Below, in pieces: positions 2-41,387 of a stretch of 64,000 bases of DNA. The notes under the pieces were generated by a model. It was not told the DNA's origin, ran no database searches, and saw only the letters and a program-made list of their open reading frames with translations. Made by a program: the position numbers and the translations under genes. The DNA is taken from assembly GCF_057098645.1 (NCBI RefSeq), contig NZ_CM169472.1; one strand, 5' to 3'. Position 1 is the first letter of the stretch; each line of letters begins with the position of its first letter.

Positions 2-289
2 TACTGGACGCACCCAGAATACGCCAACCTGTTTGGGGATAGAGAGGCAATTTCAGCTGATGAGTTCAGATCTTTCTGCAAGCAGCATGGCATTGAATCA
101 TCAATTGTTGAAATGGAAAACGACAACAATCAAACGGTAATTGACGCGTATTTTGAAGATGGGAATCCAAACATCAGTGGATGGGAGCCAAGCATGCCAG
201 ATGGAAAAGGATGGTTTGTCGGTTCGATTCACGATACAGAAGACGGTCCGATCTGCGTTTGGTTCAGGAATGTAGATAAGGCCGCATAG
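2..289 (+). CDS. Phage early-region protein, C-terminal fragment (5' end outside window)
   Basis: Open frame from the window edge to TAG at 287..289 (about 95 codons), same strand as the downstream phage operon. No start codon in window. Confidence 0.35.
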   Translation, partial: YWTHPEYANLFGDREAISADEFRSFCKQHGIESSIVEMENDNNQTVIDAYFEDGNPNISGWEPSMPDGKGWFVGSIHDTEDGPICVWFRNVDKAA

Positions 290-352
290 TCGGCCTTTAT
301 TTTTGGCATAAACAAGAGAATAAACACTGCACTGAATTATTTGAGGTGAGAT

Positions 353-823
353 ATGACAAAATCATGGAGCGTACCTTTTCCTGAATCAGAAACTGAACAT
401 GATGGAATGCCTGTTTTCTGGAGATTCCAAGCGACAGTTGAAGAAGATGGAATCAAAATATTCGCACTTCAATATATAGCTTTTCATCAGACAGAGCATT
501 ATGCATGGTTGGTTCCTTCGCATTGGATTGTTAATTTTAAACCAGCACCAAATCAGTGGTTACAGGAATGGAAACAAAGGAGAAATAGATATGCAATTAA
601 GAAAGTAGCAAAAAATGCAGAAAGATCTTTTGCATTCCCGACGAAGAAACTTGCCATTGAAAGTTTATTGCGCCGGAAGAAATACCATTTGATGAGAATC
701 AAACAAGATTTGGCTGTTGTATCAACTCTTGTTGATGGGATGAAGAATATTGATACATCAACACCAGATATTGAATATAACTTTGGACACAACCAAGAAA
801 CAGAAAATTGGGTGTTTTATTAG
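353..823 (+). CDS. Hypothetical phage protein (156 aa), function unknown
   Basis: ORF with a GAGGTGA Shine-Dalgarno-like sequence just upstream of the ATG. AT-rich codon usage typical of phage accessory genes. No family recognised. Confidence 0.55.
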   Translation: MTKSWSVPFPESETEHDGMPVFWRFQATVEEDGIKIFALQYIAFHQTEHYAWLVPSHWIVNFKPAPNQWLQEWKQRRNRYAIKKVAKNAERSFAFPTKKLAIESLLRRKKYHLMRIKQDLAVVSTLVDGMKNIDTSTPDIEYNFGHNQETENWVFY

Positions 824-973
824 TACGAATAAGCACTGTATATTCATTCCAACGAGTGAATACACGGAGCAATGTCGCTCGTAACTAAACAGGAGCCGAC
901 TTGTTCTGATTATTGGAAATCTTCTTTGCCATCCAATGTGAGGGCGTTTTTTTATCTATGAGGATATGAATAG

Positions 974-1342
974 ATGTCAAACATCAAAAAATACATCATT
1001 GATTACGACTGGAAAGCATCAATAGAAATTGAAATCGACCATGACGTAATGACAGAGGAAAAACTTCACCAGATTAATAATTTCTGGTCAGACTCTGAAT
1101 ACCGACTCAATAAACACGGCGCTGTATTAAATGCTGTATTAATCATGCTGGCGCAACATGCTCTGCTTATAGCAATTTCGAAAGACTTAAATGCATATGG
1201 TGTTGTTTGTGAGTTCGACTGGGATGATGGAAATGGTCAGAAAGGATGGCCTCCAATGGATGGTAGTGAAGGAATAAGAATTACCGATATCGATACATCA
1301 GGAATATTTGATTCAGATGATATGACTATCAAGGCCGCCTGA
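974..1342 (+). CDS. ea10: Lambda Ea10-like protein
   Basis: 122-aa translation matches my recollection of lambda Ea10 and sits immediately upstream of cIII, as in lambda. Confidence 0.7.
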   Translation: MSNIKKYIIDYDWKASIEIEIDHDVMTEEKLHQINNFWSDSEYRLNKHGAVLNAVLIMLAQHALLIAISKDLNAYGVVCEFDWDDGNGQKGWPPMDGSEGIRITDIDTSGIFDSDDMTIKAA

Positions 1343-1414
1343 GTGCGGTTTTACCGCATACCAATAACGCTTCACTCGAGGCGTTTTTCGTTATGTATAA
1401 ATAAGGAGCACACC

Positions 1415-1579
1415 ATGCAATATGCCATTGCAGGGTGGCCTGTTGCTGGCTGCCCTTCCGAATCTTTACTTGAACGAATCACCCGTAAATTACGTGACGG
1501 ATGGAAACGACTTATCGACATACTTAATCAGCCAGGAGTCCCCAAAAATGGATCAAATACTTATGGCTATCCAGACTAA
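1415..1579 (+). CDS. cIII: CIII (FtsH inhibitor, stabilises CII)
   Basis: 54-aa translation [54 protein letters not shown], recognised as lambda CIII. Internal ATG at 1415 with AAGGAG RBS upstream. Confidence 0.8.
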   Translation: MQYAIAGWPVAGCPSESLLERITRKLRDGWKRLIDILNQPGVPKNGSNTYGYPD

Positions 1580-1691
1580 ATTCACTATCGCCACTTTTAT
1601 TGGCGATGAAAAGATGTTTCGTGAGGCCGTCGACGCTTATAAAAAATGGATATTAATACTGAAACTGAGATCAGGCAAAAGCATTCACTAA
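1548..1691 (+). CDS. kil: Kil (host-killing / cell division inhibitor)
   Basis: 47-aa translation [47 protein letters not shown], lambda Kil-like. Overlaps the cIII 3' end in another frame as in lambda. Confidence 0.75.
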
Positions 1692-1766
1692 TCCCCTTTC
1701 CTGTTTTCCTAATCAGCCTGGCATTTCGCGGGCGATATTTTCACAGCCATTTTCAGGAGTTCAGCC

Positions 1767-2063
1767 ATGAACGCTTATTACATTCAGGATCGTCTTGAGG
1801 CTCAGAGTTGGGCGCGTCACTACCAGCAGATCGCCCGTGAAGAGAAAGAGGCAGAACTGGCAGACGACATGGAAAAAGGCCTGCCCCAGCACCTGTTTGA
1901 ATCGCTATGCATCGATCATTTGCAACGCCACGGGGCCAGCAAAAAAGCCATTACCCGTGCGTTTGATGACGATGTTGAGTTTCAGGAGCGCATGGCAGAA
2001 CACATCCGGTACATGGTTGAAACCATTGCTCACCACCAGGTTGATATTGATTCAGAGGTATAA
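1767..2063 (+). CDS. gam: Gam (RecBCD inhibitor), 98-aa form
   Basis: Translation [39 protein letters not shown]... recognised as lambda Gam. Directly upstream of bet. Confidence 0.9.
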
Positions 2064-2068
2064 AACGG

Positions 2069-2854
2069 ATGAGTACAGCACTCGCAACGCTGGCTGGGAA
2101 GCTGGCTGAACGTGTCGGCATGGATTCTGTCGACCCACAGGAACTGATCACCACTCTTCGCCAGACGGCATTTAAAGGTGATGCCAGCGATGCGCAGTTC
2201 ATCGCATTGTTGATCGTCGCCAACCAGTACGGCCTTAATCCGTGGACGAAAGAAATTTACGCCTTCCCTGATAAGCAGAACGGCATCGTTCCGGTGGTGG
2301 GCGTTGATGGCTGGTCCCGCATCATCAATGAAAACCAGCAGTTTGATGGCATGGACTTTGAGCAGGACAATGAATCATGTACATGCAGGATTTACCGCAA
2401 GGACCGTAATCATCCGATCTGCGTTACCGAATGGATGGATGAATGCCGCCGCGAACCATTCAAAACCCGCGAAGGCAGAGAAATCACCGGACCGTGGCAG
2501 TCGCATCCCAAACGGATGTTACGGCATAAATCCATGATTCAGTGTGCCCGTCTCGCCTTCGGATTTGCTGGTATCTATGACAAGGATGAAGCCGAGCGCA
2601 TTGTCGAAAATACTGCATACACTGCAGAACGTCAGCTGGAACGCGACATCACTCCGGTTAACGATGAAACCATGCAGGAGATTAACACTCTGCTAATCGC
2701 CCTGGATAAAACATGGGATGACGACTTATTGCCGCTCTGTTCCCAGATATTTCGCCGCGACATTCGCGCATCGTCAGAACTGACACAGGCCGAAGCAGTG
2801 AAAGCTCTTGGATTCCTGAAACAGAAAGCCACTGAGCAGAAGGTGGCAGCATGA
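2069..2854 (+). CDS. bet: Bet (Red beta single-strand annealing protein)
   Basis: 261-aa translation [48 protein letters not shown]... recognised as lambda Bet. Confidence 0.92.
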
Positions 2855-17725: not shown

Positions 17726-17898
17726 GATGAGCATTCAGATAGTGGTTCACGCGCACGGGTTGCGCACCGCCGGAGTAAGGATTTACTGAGGCTAGCGACG
17801 CCATCATAACGAGCAAAAAGTGCGATCGTCAAAGGAGAATCGTGAGGAAATGCTGCATTGCTGACATTTACGCCAGCAATGCAACGTCAAAGAACTTT

Positions 17899-29365: not shown

Positions 29366-29560
29366 CGCATCCGGCATTTGGTTCCTGTCGCCGGATGCGG
29401 CTTGAACGCCTTATCCGGCCTACAAAACCATACAAATCAGTATGTTGAGCTCATTGTAGGCCGGATAAAACGCGCCAGCGTTGCATCCGGCATTTGGCTC
29501 CTGTCGCCGGATGCGGCGTGAACGCCTTATCCGGCCTACAAAACCACACAGATCATGATG
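29366..29560. repeat. BIME: cluster of 3-4 REP elements in alternating orientation
   Basis: Repeated gccggatgcggc(g/t)tgaacgccttatccggcctacaaaacc units and an inverted copy, between the convergent preA and mglC. Confidence 0.8.
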
Positions 29561-36508: not shown

Positions 36509-36732
36509 TTATGATTTCTCCTGCAGGTGTGACGCCTCCGCCCTGCGTGGGGGCAAAGTTATTAAGCTGATTTACAGCCTGATTATTGTGCGTGAGGCGG
36601 CGCACATAATCCAGTATTCACAGCGATAATTATTGTAATTGCCGCTGCCTTTCATCAGCAGATGTTAAAACATCGTTATGCAAATACGGAAGTGAAAGTT
36701 ACTCACAGCACATTGAATAAACGGTATGATGA

Positions 36733-37633: not shown

Positions 37634-39625
37634 TCAGAAGCGATAATCCACTGCCATAAAGTAACGACGTCCGTCTTCGTTATAGCTGTAGTCGTCACGA
37701 CTGAGATCCTTGTCGCCAAGGTTCAGCACGCCTGCGCGCAGTTTGACGTCTTTAGTCACCTGCCAGGCCGCGCCGGTATTCCAGATGGTATAACCGCCCG
37801 GTGTTTTAGCCGTCGCGCTGTCGGCTCGTTTCTGCCCGGTATAGTGACCAGAAACATAGAATGACCAGTCTTCCAGCGCCAGCGGTTTCCAGTCCAGCGT
37901 ACCGTTAGCGGTATGGAACGGCAGATCGGATAGCGGTTTGTTTTCGCCGTTGCTGACATCACGACCATCGTTGTAGGTGTAGTTGAGTGACAGTTTCCAT
38001 TCATCGTTGAACGGAATTTTCAGTTCGGTTTCCACGCCCTGAATACGAGCTTTGTTAACGTTGTAGTAGCTAAATACCGGTATGCGCCGTCCGTTAGCGC
38101 CCGTCTCAAAACCGACAAAGTTTTGGTAGCCCGGTGCAGCATTGACGTCAGACGTACGGCTGATGCTGATGCGATCTTTCACATCGTTACGGAAAACGGT
38201 AACGCTGGATTCAACCCCTTCCAGCCAGCCTTCTTCACCCATGTAGTACAGCCCCAGCTCCCAACTTTCGCTGGTTTCTGGTTTCAGATCCGGGCTACCC
38301 ACAATCTTACATGCGCCACGGCAGGAATTGCTCGTCCAGTCAGGGCTAAGTTGCAACAGAGAAGGTGCTTTAAATGCCGTCGCCCAGCCCCCTTTCACCG
38401 TTACGGTGTCGGTGGCGTTATAAACCAGGTAGGCACGCGGACTCCAGTGTTCACCGTAGGTTTCATGATCGTCCATACGTACGCCGGTCGTCAGCGCCAG
38501 CGGCTCGAAGATCCGCCATTCATCTTCCACAAACAGCGCGTACTGGCTGGCAGACGTTTTGGAGCTGGTTCCCCCGGTCAGGTTCACCGCATCGCTAAGT
38601 TTGTCGTGACGCCATTCACCGCCAACCGTGAGAAACTGATTAATCGCCGTCAGCGGCAAGGTGTATTTGCCGTCGACCGTATTGCTTTCGGAAGTTATCG
38701 GGCTGCTGTTGCCAGGGTTTTTGTTCTCGACTTTCTCACCGTAGTATTTCAGTTCGCTGGTGCCGTAATCCCAACGCCCATTATGGCTGACGGAGTAGTT
38801 CTGGCGTTCCAGGCGGTTTTTGTCCAACGAGTCGGAATCACGATCCTGACGGTCGAAACCGTATCCGGCAGTAAAATCGTGATTTTGATTCGGTGTCCAG
38901 GCAAATTCGATATTGCCGTCGCGGCTGGAGAATCCTTCAATACGCGGCGTTTCTCCGGTATCGGTGGTCGTTGAGTTTTGCGGGTCATCCTTTTCACGTT
39001 TTGCCAGGCTGCCGTAAGCTTTCATTCCCAGCACACCATCAATTAATGGTCCACTGGTAAAGAACTGACCGTTATAGGTATCACCGCGATCGCGATGTTC
39101 CTGAATGGTGGTATCGACGGTAACGGTACCCGACCATTTCTGACCGATTTTTTTGGTGATGATATTCACTACACCGCCGAGCGCATCGGAACCGTACAGC
39201 GACGACATCGGGCCACGGACCACTTCAATACGTTCGATGGAATCGACCGGGATCCAGTTCAGATCGAAATCATTGTGGCGGAAGACGGCATTGCGGGAGT
39301 TAACGCGTTTACCGTCGACGAGAATCAGGGTGTAGCTGCTGTCAAGACCACGAATACTAACGCCCTTACGGTTATCCCCTTCGTTCGTCAGTTGTACGCC
39401 AGGCACTTCTTTGAGGACATCCTTCAGATTCTGTACCGGTTTTCGCTGCAGGTCTTCCTGGGTAATGACGCTGATACTGGCGGGTGCATCTTTAAGGTTT
39501 TGTTCAACGGAAGATGCAGTGACAACCATCGTTTCGCCATCATCATCGACCGCTAACACAGGCCATGCACAAGAAATAGCGGACAAACACAGCCCGACCC
39601 GTACGAAAGGGTTCAACCTAAACAT
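37634..39625 (-). CDS. cirA: TonB-dependent colicin I / catecholate siderophore receptor
   Basis: 663 aa with signal peptide, TonB-box region and C-terminal beta-barrel ending in aromatic ...DYRF. Confidence 0.92.
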
Positions 39626-39792
39626 TCCATATCTCCATGAGGTAACTACGAAAATAAAATGGGTTATCGCTCACATCTTCTTCACGTCCCCTTGCGTACG
39701 GCAGCATCGCGGTGGACTTATTTGTATGCAGGTGATCATCCCAGCAAGCCGGACCAGCCTCTGATTTGTCAGCCTTTTTTGATTGCGGCGTA

Positions 39793-39822
39793 ACGATAAT
39801 GCAAACGATAACAATTATCAAT
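39793..39822. promoter_or_regulatory. Fur box(es) in the cirA promoter
   Basis: gataatgcaaacgataacaattatca, an AT-rich GATAAT/ATTATC-type array upstream of the cirA start. Confidence 0.45.
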
Positions 39823-39870
39823 CCAAATGTTAAATTTTATATCCGCATGATTTGTCAGGGAAATGAAATT

Positions 39871-39898
39871 GAAAAAGCCCTCTCGGTTGAGAGGGCTT
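39871..39898 (-). terminator. Rho-independent terminator of lysP
   Basis: Perfect stem agccctctc/gagagggct with ggtt loop. The A-run on the + strand is a T-run on the minus-strand transcript, about 20 nt after the lysP stop. Confidence 0.7.
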
Positions 39899-39917
39899 AG
39901 CAAGGAAGGGAGGAAAC

Positions 39918-41387
39918 TTATTTCTTATCGTTCTGCGGGAACTTCATTTCGCTGTAGCGTACGAAGTGAGTTCCTTTAATCAGCTTGTAGCCGAACCAAA
40001 TAATCAGGAACAGCGGGATACCAATATACGTTGCCGCTACGCCGCCCCAGTCAATGGTATCTTTCAGGAACGCTTCGTAGTTCTGGCCCAAAGTGATAAT
40101 CAGACACAGAATGAATGCGAAGATCGGCCCCAGTGGGAAGAAACCTGAACGGTACGGCAGATCGTTAATGTCGTGTCCCTGCAATACGTAACCGCGACGG
40201 AAGCGATAGTGGCTAATGGCAATCCCCAGCCAGGCGATAAAACCGGTCATCCCGGAGGTATTCAGCAGCCACAGGTATACCGTCTGGTTGCCAAACATGG
40301 AGGTCAGGAAGCACAGACCGGCAATCACCGTCGTCGCATACAGCGCATTACGCGGCACGCCACCACGCGACAGTTTAGCGAAAATGCGCGGCGCTTTACC
40401 GTCACACGCCAGGGTGTACAGCATACGAGTAGACGCATACATACCGGAGTTACCCGCTGACAGCACCGCCGTCAGAATAACTGCGTTCATCACCGCCGCC
40501 GCAGAGAGCAGACCCGCATGCTGGAACACCAGGGTGAACGGACTGACGCTGATGTCTTTAACATCGTTACGCAGCAGGCTCGGATCGGTGTACGGAATAA
40601 TCAGGCTGATAATCAGGATCGCGAACACATAGAACAACAGGATTCGCCAGAACACCTGACGTACCGCACGTGGAATGTTTTTCGCCGGATCTTCGGACTC
40701 GCCTGCAGCAATACCGATCAGCTCGGTTCCCTGGAAAGAGAAGCCGACAATCATAGCTACGCCGATCATCGCCGCAAAACCACCAGCAAACGGCGCTTCG
40801 CCGATTGTCCAGTTGCTCCAGCCCGCAGGCTGCGCGCCTTTGAAGATACCGATAATCATCAGCACGCCAACGATGATAAAGACAATAACTGTCGTGACTT
40901 TGATCAGTGAGAACCAGTATTCCGCTTCACCAAAGCCGCGAACTGAGATGTAGTTCAGCAGGAAGATAACACCGAGGAACAACGCACTCCAGATCCAGCC
41001 CGGTGTATCCGGGAACCACCAGCTCATGACCAGCTGAGCTGCAACCAGGTCAACGGCGATAGTCACCGCCCAGTTGTACCAGTAGTTCCAGCCCAGCGCG
41101 AAGCCAAAGCCTTCTTCAACATAGTTCTGACCATAAGTGGCAAACGAACCGGAAACCGGCATATATGCAGCCAGTTCACCGAGACTGGTCATCAGGAAGT
41201 AAACCATCAGGCCAATCAACATATACGAGAGCAATGCCCCGCCCGGACCTGCCTGAGAAATCGTTGCGCCAGAGGCAACAAAAAGACCTGTACCGATGGA
41301 ACCACCAATGGCAATCATCGTCAGGTGACGCGCCTTTAATTCACGGCGTAAGCCCGGCGCTTCTGTGGTTTTAGTTTCGGAAACCAT
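39918..41387 (-). CDS. lysP: Lysine-specific permease (APC family)
   Basis: 489-aa 12-TM amino-acid permease (MVSETKTTEAPGLRRELKARHLTMIAIGGSIGTGLF...). Confidence 0.92.
   Translation of the reverse strand: MVSETKTTEAPGLRRELKARHLTMIAIGGSIGTGLFVASGATISQAGPGGALLSYMLIGLMVYFLMTSLGELAAYMPVSGSFATYGQNYVEEGFGFALGWNYWYNWAVTIAVDLVAAQLVMSWWFPDTPGWIWSALFLGVIFLLNYISVRGFGEAEYWFSLIKVTTVIVFIIVGVLMIIGIFKGAQPAGWSNWTIGEAPFAGGFAAMIGVAMIVGFSFQGTELIGIAAGESEDPAKNIPRAVRQVFWRILLFYVFAILIISLIIPYTDPSLLRNDVKDISVSPFTLVFQHAGLLSAAAVMNAVILTAVLSAGNSGMYASTRMLYTLACDGKAPRIFAKLSRGGVPRNALYATTVIAGLCFLTSMFGNQTVYLWLLNTSGMTGFIAWLGIAISHYRFRRGYVLQGHDINDLPYRSGFFPLGPIFAFILCLIITLGQNYEAFLKDTIDWGGVAATYIGIPLFLIIWFGYKLIKGTHFVRYSEMKFPQNDKK

Follow-up and report, generated by a model that had tools for sequence, protein, structure and literature searches.

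The lysP-cirA junction of Escherichia coli: a conserved terminator, Fur-controlled cirA promoters and a candidate hotspot for an 86-bp promoter deletion

The 292-bp spacer between lysP and cirA (39626..39917 of the window, i.e. the whole stretch of 64,000 nucleotides analysed here) very probably represents the head-to-tail junction of two independent minus-strand transcription units, with the Fur-controlled cirA promoters located behind the lysP terminator. The gene order, the strands, the hairpin, the promoter and Fur matches and the conservation were computed here, and the footprint, the transcription starts and the regulation by small RNAs (sRNAs) are taken from published papers. Descriptions of the cirA promoters, of their Fur operator and of lysP as a monocistronic unit go back to the late 1980s, and this arrangement as such is already known and nothing new. 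The item worth passing on is a repeat-bounded deletion that removes the cirA promoters.

In the mechanism that we propose, lysP transcripts would stop at a Rho-independent terminator, and ~40 bp past it two overlapping sigma-70 promoters, P1 and P2, would lie under a ~43-bp operator composed of overlapping GATAAT-like hexamers. In the presence of iron, Fe2+-Fur bound to the operator would keep RNA polymerase off both promoters. In its absence, P1 and P2 would fire and yield an mRNA with a leader of 160-173 nt, and RyhB/Hfq and OmrA/B would then tune the translation of that mRNA. As we infer it, the terminator would also shield cirA, with an efficiency likewise deduced, from lysine-regulated lysP transcription, and any transcription leaking from lysP would run in the sense direction. 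The locus would thus offer a clean example of a structure-conserved terminator insulating an iron-regulated promoter from an amino-acid-regulated upstream gene.

Gene order and the lysP terminator

The RefSeq annotation gives the genes in the order yeiE, lysP, cirA, all in one direction. The two genes that flank the spacer, as defined by the list of open reading frames (ORFs) and the RefSeq annotation (100%-identical genomes and K-12 for lysP), and the terminator, as defined by a terminator scan, RNA folding and species comparison, are as follows.

39918..41387, minus strand: lysP coding sequence (CDS), lysine-specific permease of 489 aa
39865..39898, minus strand: lysP intrinsic (Rho-independent) terminator
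37634..39625, minus strand: cirA CDS, TonB-dependent catecholate siderophore, colicin Ia/Ib and microcin receptor of 663 aa

Read along the minus strand, the elements therefore succeed one another as lysP, terminator, P1/P2 with the Fur operator, a 172-nt leader and cirA. The original prediction had named three elements correctly, namely the region upstream of cirA, the operator for Fur and the terminator of lysP, and it had rightly put no more than ~50 bp between box and hairpin (39820 to 39871, about 50 bp). It had, however, described the cirA promoter as back-to-back with the lysP terminator, when ORFs and RefSeq annotation place the two genes head-to-tail, both on the minus strand. This orientation bears on its further claim that lysP read-through would run antisense into the cirA promoter: since the minus strand carries both genes and also the terminator T-run, read-through enters that promoter as sense transcription. 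The idea of antisense interference stems from a mistaken strand assignment.

The 701 bp around the spacer are 100% identical to several E. coli O145:H28 genomes, and of the 5426 complete genomes of E. coli, 5425 have this stretch as a single chromosomal copy. Between the lysP stop and the cirA ATG, alignment with K-12 MG1655 revealed four substitutions and one 1-nt indel, none of which affects the promoters, the operator or the terminator stem. One difference, T/C, is in the terminator tail, and three substitutions and the 1-nt deletion are in the leader.

We scanned one genome per GTDB species for CirA, which yielded 80 loci. In 63 of these (Enterobacterales), lysP is found upstream of cirA on the same strand, including in Escherichia, Salmonella, Klebsiella, Enterobacter, Citrobacter, Kluyvera, Kosakonia and Buttiauxella. 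The spacer measures 190-520 bp in nearly all loci and about 2.2 kb in two Erwiniaceae loci (L065 and L067). One record, L030 (CACSKA010000001.1), titled 'Chryseobacterium sp. 18061', harbours an enterobacterial lysP-cirA locus, with LysP 93% and CirA 80% identical to the E. coli proteins. A sister record from the same project carries the name Citrobacter, and the organism label of L030 is probably wrong.

The co-directional order holds in all 63 species loci in which lysP is the neighbour. It speaks against a model in which the two genes face each other or lie back to back, with polymerases escaping from lysP colliding with the cirA promoter or transcribing antisense to it, so that iron control would be compounded by transcriptional interference. 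The sole point in favour of that model is that the elements are about 50 bp apart. Since both genes and the terminator T-run are on the minus strand, with no T-run after the stem on the plus strand, and since the promoter scan found no promoter-like site on the plus strand of the spacer, it is almost certainly wrong.

The terminator stem-loop (39898..39875) comprises a perfect 10-bp stem with six G-C pairs, whose arms are AAGCCCTCTC and GAGAGGGCTT at 39875..39884 and 39889..39898, respectively, and a 4-nt loop, in agreement with the strong hairpin predicted at 39871..39898. The U-rich tail TTTCAATTTC (39874..39865), read as UUUCAAUUUC by the scan, follows directly after the stem on the minus strand. 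The terminator begins 19 nt past the lysP stop codon on the same strand and spans 19-53 nt past that stop. Its hairpin has a folding energy of -18.2 kcal/mol (z = -4.8), and none of 200 shuffled sequences was as stable. A hairpin followed by a T-tail was found at most 90 nt from the lysP stop in 61 of 64 species loci, compared with 5 of 1280 shuffles (0.4%); the hairpin is farther downstream or the tail weaker in the other three loci. The loop-proximal stem occurs as 17 distinct sequences in the 61 loci, with nearly all pairs of the Watson-Crick type, although the hairpins were chosen by a pairing criterion and the fair statistic is therefore the hit rate (61/64 vs 5/1280). These compensatory stem changes in a conserved terminator argue for selection on termination.

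Like canonical Rho-independent terminators between tandem units, that of lysP consists of a GC-rich 10-bp stem, a tetraloop and a U-tract just past the stop codon, and, as for canonical insulating ones, it has been kept by structure rather than by sequence. It differs from them by its U-tract, UUUUUCAAUUUC, which is interrupted after five U, making some read-through possible. A leaky terminator would allow sense read-through and hence a Fur-independent, lysine/ArgP-dependent basal expression of cirA, with bound Fur acting as a roadblock. The interrupted U-tract, the short distance between co-directional genes and the adjacency of lysP and cirA across Enterobacteriaceae are in line with this possibility, whereas the strong conservation of the terminator and the compensatory changes of its stem are not. 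Moreover, no lysP-cirA co-transcript was found in the literature searched, including the accessible portions of the SMRT-Cappable-seq and Term-seq supplements. We thus regard substantial leakage as improbable, and insulation by the terminator as the preferred reading.

Among the entries listed in the available part of the Term-seq data (PMC7815308), none is near K-12 positions 2246980-2247039, which correspond to the lysP terminator region. Rfam searches, performed with gathering thresholds over the whole window and in E-value mode over 39500..40000, returned nothing curated in the spacer. The sub-threshold matches to Phe_leader (25 bits) and suhB/mmgR (21 bits) merely overlie the terminator hairpin and were discarded.

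The cirA promoters and the Fur operator

The promoter scan revealed two overlapping, sigma-70-like promoters, with starts 13 nt apart. The operator was delineated by mapping the K-12 DNase I footprint to the window, and by consensus scores and conservation.

39805..39833, minus strand: P1, with -35 TTAACA (39833..39828), a 17-bp spacer with TG and -10 TATCGT (39810..39805)
39793..39821, minus strand: P2, with -35 TTGATA (39821..39816), a 17-bp spacer and -10 TATCGT (39798..39793)
39790..39832, no strand assigned: Fur operator

In K-12, the cirA leader is 173 nt long from p1 and 160 nt from p2 (Guillier and Gottesman, PMC2588501). Mapping of these lengths to the window through the 1-nt indel would put the P1 start at an A at ~39797 and the P2 start at an A at ~39784, each shortly 3' of one of the two -10 hexamers. 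Ideally, the P2 -10 given by the consensus scan would be 1-2 nt closer to the published start. P1, P2 and the Fur operator of K-12 cirA (cir) were described by Griggs, Tharp and Konisky in 1987 and Griggs and Konisky in 1989, as cited in PMC2189734 and PMC2588501. The locus in the window is the same, with differences that amount to trivial strain polymorphisms.

A Fur-box-like array had been predicted at 39795..39820, and its string, gataatgcaaacgataacaattatca, is found exactly there on the plus strand. It falls inside the mapped footprint, 39790..39832, which derives from a DNase footprint of cir in K-12 (NC_000913.2 2244957-2244999; Chen et al., given second-hand in PMC2189734). The same paper gives a score of 20.7 bits to a cluster of three Fur sites in cir, the centre of which is 189 bp before the start codon (PMC2189734). 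In the window, the footprint spans ~-35 to +8 of P1 and the -35 and -10 regions of P2. Its core 7-1-7 box is TGATAATTGTTATCG (39820..39806). The Fur box overlaps the P1 -10, the P1 start and the P2 -35 and -10, and thus the core promoters. Compared with the 7-1-7 form TGATAAT-N-ATTATCA (TGATAATNATTATCA), 13 of 15 positions match at 39806..39820, one of two such sites in the window.

Scores against the 19-bp consensus GATAATGATAATCATTATC were less discriminating. The best local match is 14/19 at 39801..39819, and together with two overlapping 13/19 matches in a 6-bp phase it spans 39801..39825. No site with three or fewer mismatches exists anywhere in the 64-kb window, and about 36 sites reach 13/19, so that a match to the 19-mer alone is not beyond chance. 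Matches of 15/19 and 14/19 were also found inside the lysP CDS (40845..40893), and one of 14/19 in the folE-yeiG spacer (36625..36643). They score at least as well as the real cirA operator and are probably fortuitous, and the 19-mer score alone therefore does not identify Fur sites.

These scores, namely 14/19 for the array, nothing within three mismatches and some 36 sites at 13/19, are what might favour the array being a chance AT-rich match, with the iron control of cirA exerted elsewhere or indirectly. We find this hardly credible, given that the published DNase footprint covers exactly that stretch, that the box overlaps both promoters and that it has been kept across species far above shuffles. 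A 7-1-7 box with at least 11 of 14 matches is present in 62 of 64 lysP-cirA spacers; among 1280 shuffles, 29 reach 11 and none reaches 12. In addition, the conservation profile calculated from an alignment of 60 distinct spacers gave the Fur operator as the top conservation block of the spacer. Its peaks correspond to the U-tract, to 39841..39791 (promoters and operator), to 39675..39668 and to 39641..39626 (Shine-Dalgarno and OmrA/B site). Conservation is low elsewhere in the spacer, which holds for most of the leader as well.

Fur control of cirA by this operator thus stands as the preferred reading. Fur was reported to bind upstream of cirA, which is under dual Fur/RyhB control (Fur ChIP/in vivo data, PMC4676285), and cirA belongs to the Fur-1 iModulon (PMC10164565). 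The original prediction was to fall if cirA showed no iron response or no Fur binding; the published data favour Fur control (PMC2189734, PMC4676285, PMC10164565). The fepA-fes, fhuA, fiu and fecA promoters harbour, like that of cirA, overlapping Fur sites 6 bp apart over the -35 and -10 elements, and repression by promoter occlusion is common to cirA and the other Fur-repressed siderophore-receptor promoters. In contrast with these four, cirA has two overlapping promoters under a single operator and an unusually long leader (160-173 nt), which is a target of RyhB and OmrA/B.

The cirA leader

Four features were delineated between P1 and the start codon.

39626..39797, minus strand: cirA 5' leader, 172 nt from P1 here and 173 nt in K-12, by alignment to K-12
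39666..39683, minus strand: GAAGAAGATGTGAGCGAT, complementary to the single-stranded core of RyhB (..ATTGCTCACATTGCTTC..)
39661, minus strand: mapped RNA 3' end, K-12 position 2246805, labelled 'upstream ORF -36 cirA' in published Term-seq tables (PMC7815308)
39626..39644, minus strand: translation initiation region, TACCTCATGG, which is the published OmrA/B pairing region, with the Shine-Dalgarno GGAG at 39636..39633

The fold of the whole leader is no more stable than those of shuffled sequences (z +0.58). RyhB with Hfq activates cirA translation via the leader (PMC4148430), and OmrA and OmrB repress cirA by pairing at the translation initiation region, at -19..-10 (PMC2588501). According to the conservation profile, that region is nearly invariant between species. 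Upstream of it, TGTGAGCG (39675..39668), in the centre of GAAGAAGATGTGAGCGAT, coincides with a conservation peak. RNAduplex analyses with the sRNA seed regions placed nucleotides 33-60 of RyhB on 39666..39683, with a non-significant energy (37 of 500 shuffles were at least as good). Complementarity and conservation suggest that 39666..39683 may be the RyhB site. The OmrA/B seed regions landed in the leader away from their published site, and thermodynamic prediction alone is not decisive for sRNA pairing in this leader. Full-length RyhB, OmrA and OmrB gave meaningless long duplexes with the leader, and those runs were set aside.

The mapped RNA 3' end at 39661 is 36 nt upstream of the ATG, just before ATTTTATTTT. 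This position makes processing likelier than termination, and points to RNase E cleavage or to a leader fragment that is stable. We also scanned for CRP sites (TGTGA-N6-TCACA, with at most two mismatches). The sole match, 39660..39675, is in the leader, and the count over the window is that expected by chance; the scan yielded no site that would account for the reported effect of cAMP-CRP.

Outside the core Enterobacteriaceae, two genes on the same strand precede cirA in five loci of Winslowiella, Pantoea, Cedecea and Mixta (L065, at 222..2500, and L067, L044, L070 and L081). One codes for a membrane protein of ~360 aa and the other for an ATPase of ~262 aa that has a Walker A motif, and by eye the two look like the permease and ATPase of an iron-siderophore ABC transporter. 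In L065 and L067, the best Fur box directly follows the lysP terminator and precedes cirA by ~2.2 kb. The long leader of E. coli cirA might be a remnant left after the loss of the permease and ATPase genes.

An 86-bp deletion of the promoters and operator

A repeat search and alignments identified a perfect 11-bp direct repeat, CTGACAAATCA, whose two copies bracket P1, P2 and the Fur operator.

39848..39858, minus strand: upstream repeat copy, left boundary of the 86-bp deletion
39762..39772, minus strand: downstream repeat copy, in the cirA leader, right boundary of the deletion

The segment deleted between them is 39773..39858. A short-query search returned ~30 genomes with both flanks but without the promoter/operator segment. 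Strain 1403KP, for instance, has a spacer of 205 bp, with 86 bp missing between the repeat copies. To count the carriers of the junction AGAGGGCTTTTTCAATTCCATTTCCCTGACAAATCAGAGGCTG, we used a 61-mer query with a strict E-value. Of 5,426 complete E. coli genomes, 29 (~0.5%) contain the 61-nt deletion junction as a 100% match. Among these carriers, which come from humans, poultry, pig, dog, cat and water, are APEC O1 and an O111:H8 STEC.

In the five carriers that we examined (L085-L089), cirA is intact and codes for 663 aa, and at least three haplotypes can be told apart among these strains. Over 3.7 kb, the deletion is all that separates PM4 from K-12, APEC O1 and 1403KP are ~40 substitutions away from PM4, and TW05614 and STEC1575 form a third group. 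For both APEC O1 and TW05614, dozens of relatives whose flanks are 100% identical have retained the 86 bp, including UTI89, IHE3034 and NU14 for the former and O111 strain 11128 and many O111:H8 strains for the latter. That the deletion is found on three or more haplotypes, whose close relatives are undeleted, indicates that it arose repeatedly and recently. Among the loci examined, the upstream repeat copy is found only in E. coli sensu stricto.

A spontaneous Mcc1229-resistant mutant of O157:H7 strain PA2, called PA2.2, was reported to carry 'cirA c.-329_-244del' and to behave like a cirA knockout (PMC8853679). The frameshift alleles Gln24 and Leu35 given in that paper fit CirA only when the numbering begins at Met33. 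The reference annotation of PA2 used there evidently starts cirA at Met33, which represents a shift of 32 codons or 96 nt (the first 33 codons occupy 39527..39625). With this shift, c.-329_-244del becomes -233..-148, i.e. exactly 39858..39773 of the window, and the PA2.2 deletion consists of the same 86 bp as in the 29 natural genomes. The available text of PMC8853679 makes no mention of the 11-bp repeats or of natural carriers, and our search of the accessible literature for this promoter deletion returned no report besides that paper.

By the same published description, PA2.2 has kept the lysP terminator and 147 nt of the leader, and yet it is resistant. Sense read-through from the upstream lysP would thus give too little functional CirA. 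As the deletion spares the terminator and the leader and still confers a microcin-resistant, CirA-null-like phenotype (PMC8853679), it also counts against the leaky terminator considered above.

On balance, we lean towards the view that the cirA promoter/operator region of E. coli sensu stricto is a deletion hotspot, where slippage or recombination between the repeats would recurrently remove exactly 86 bp and silence an intact cirA gene. Colicins Ia/Ib, cefiderocol and microcins such as Mcc1229 enter the cell through CirA, as does microcin V (PMC12511343). If our view is correct, the deletion would give resistance to Cir-dependent colicins and microcins and possibly make strains less susceptible to siderophore-cephalosporins, cefiderocol among them. 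With the 86 bp gone, cirA would be directly behind the lysP terminator, and residual expression from read-through would depend on lysine rather than on iron. The practical relevance of the deletion would stem from its being recurrent and repeat-mediated, and from a promoter-only loss being invisible to gene-integrity screens: those that assess the cirA reading frame alone would miss such strains.

Elsewhere in the window, Rfam searches returned three cis-regulatory or small RNA matches far from the spacer. Two are above their gathering scores, naRNA4 (nucleoid-associated RNA) with 85.8 bits at 29459..29536 on the minus strand and the Peptidase-S11 cis-regulatory RNA with 72.8 bits at 17730..17810, also on the minus strand. 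The third, Lambda_thermo (lambda cIII thermoregulator), matches 1402..1460 on the plus strand with 88.5 bits, indicating that the start of the window is within a lambdoid prophage.
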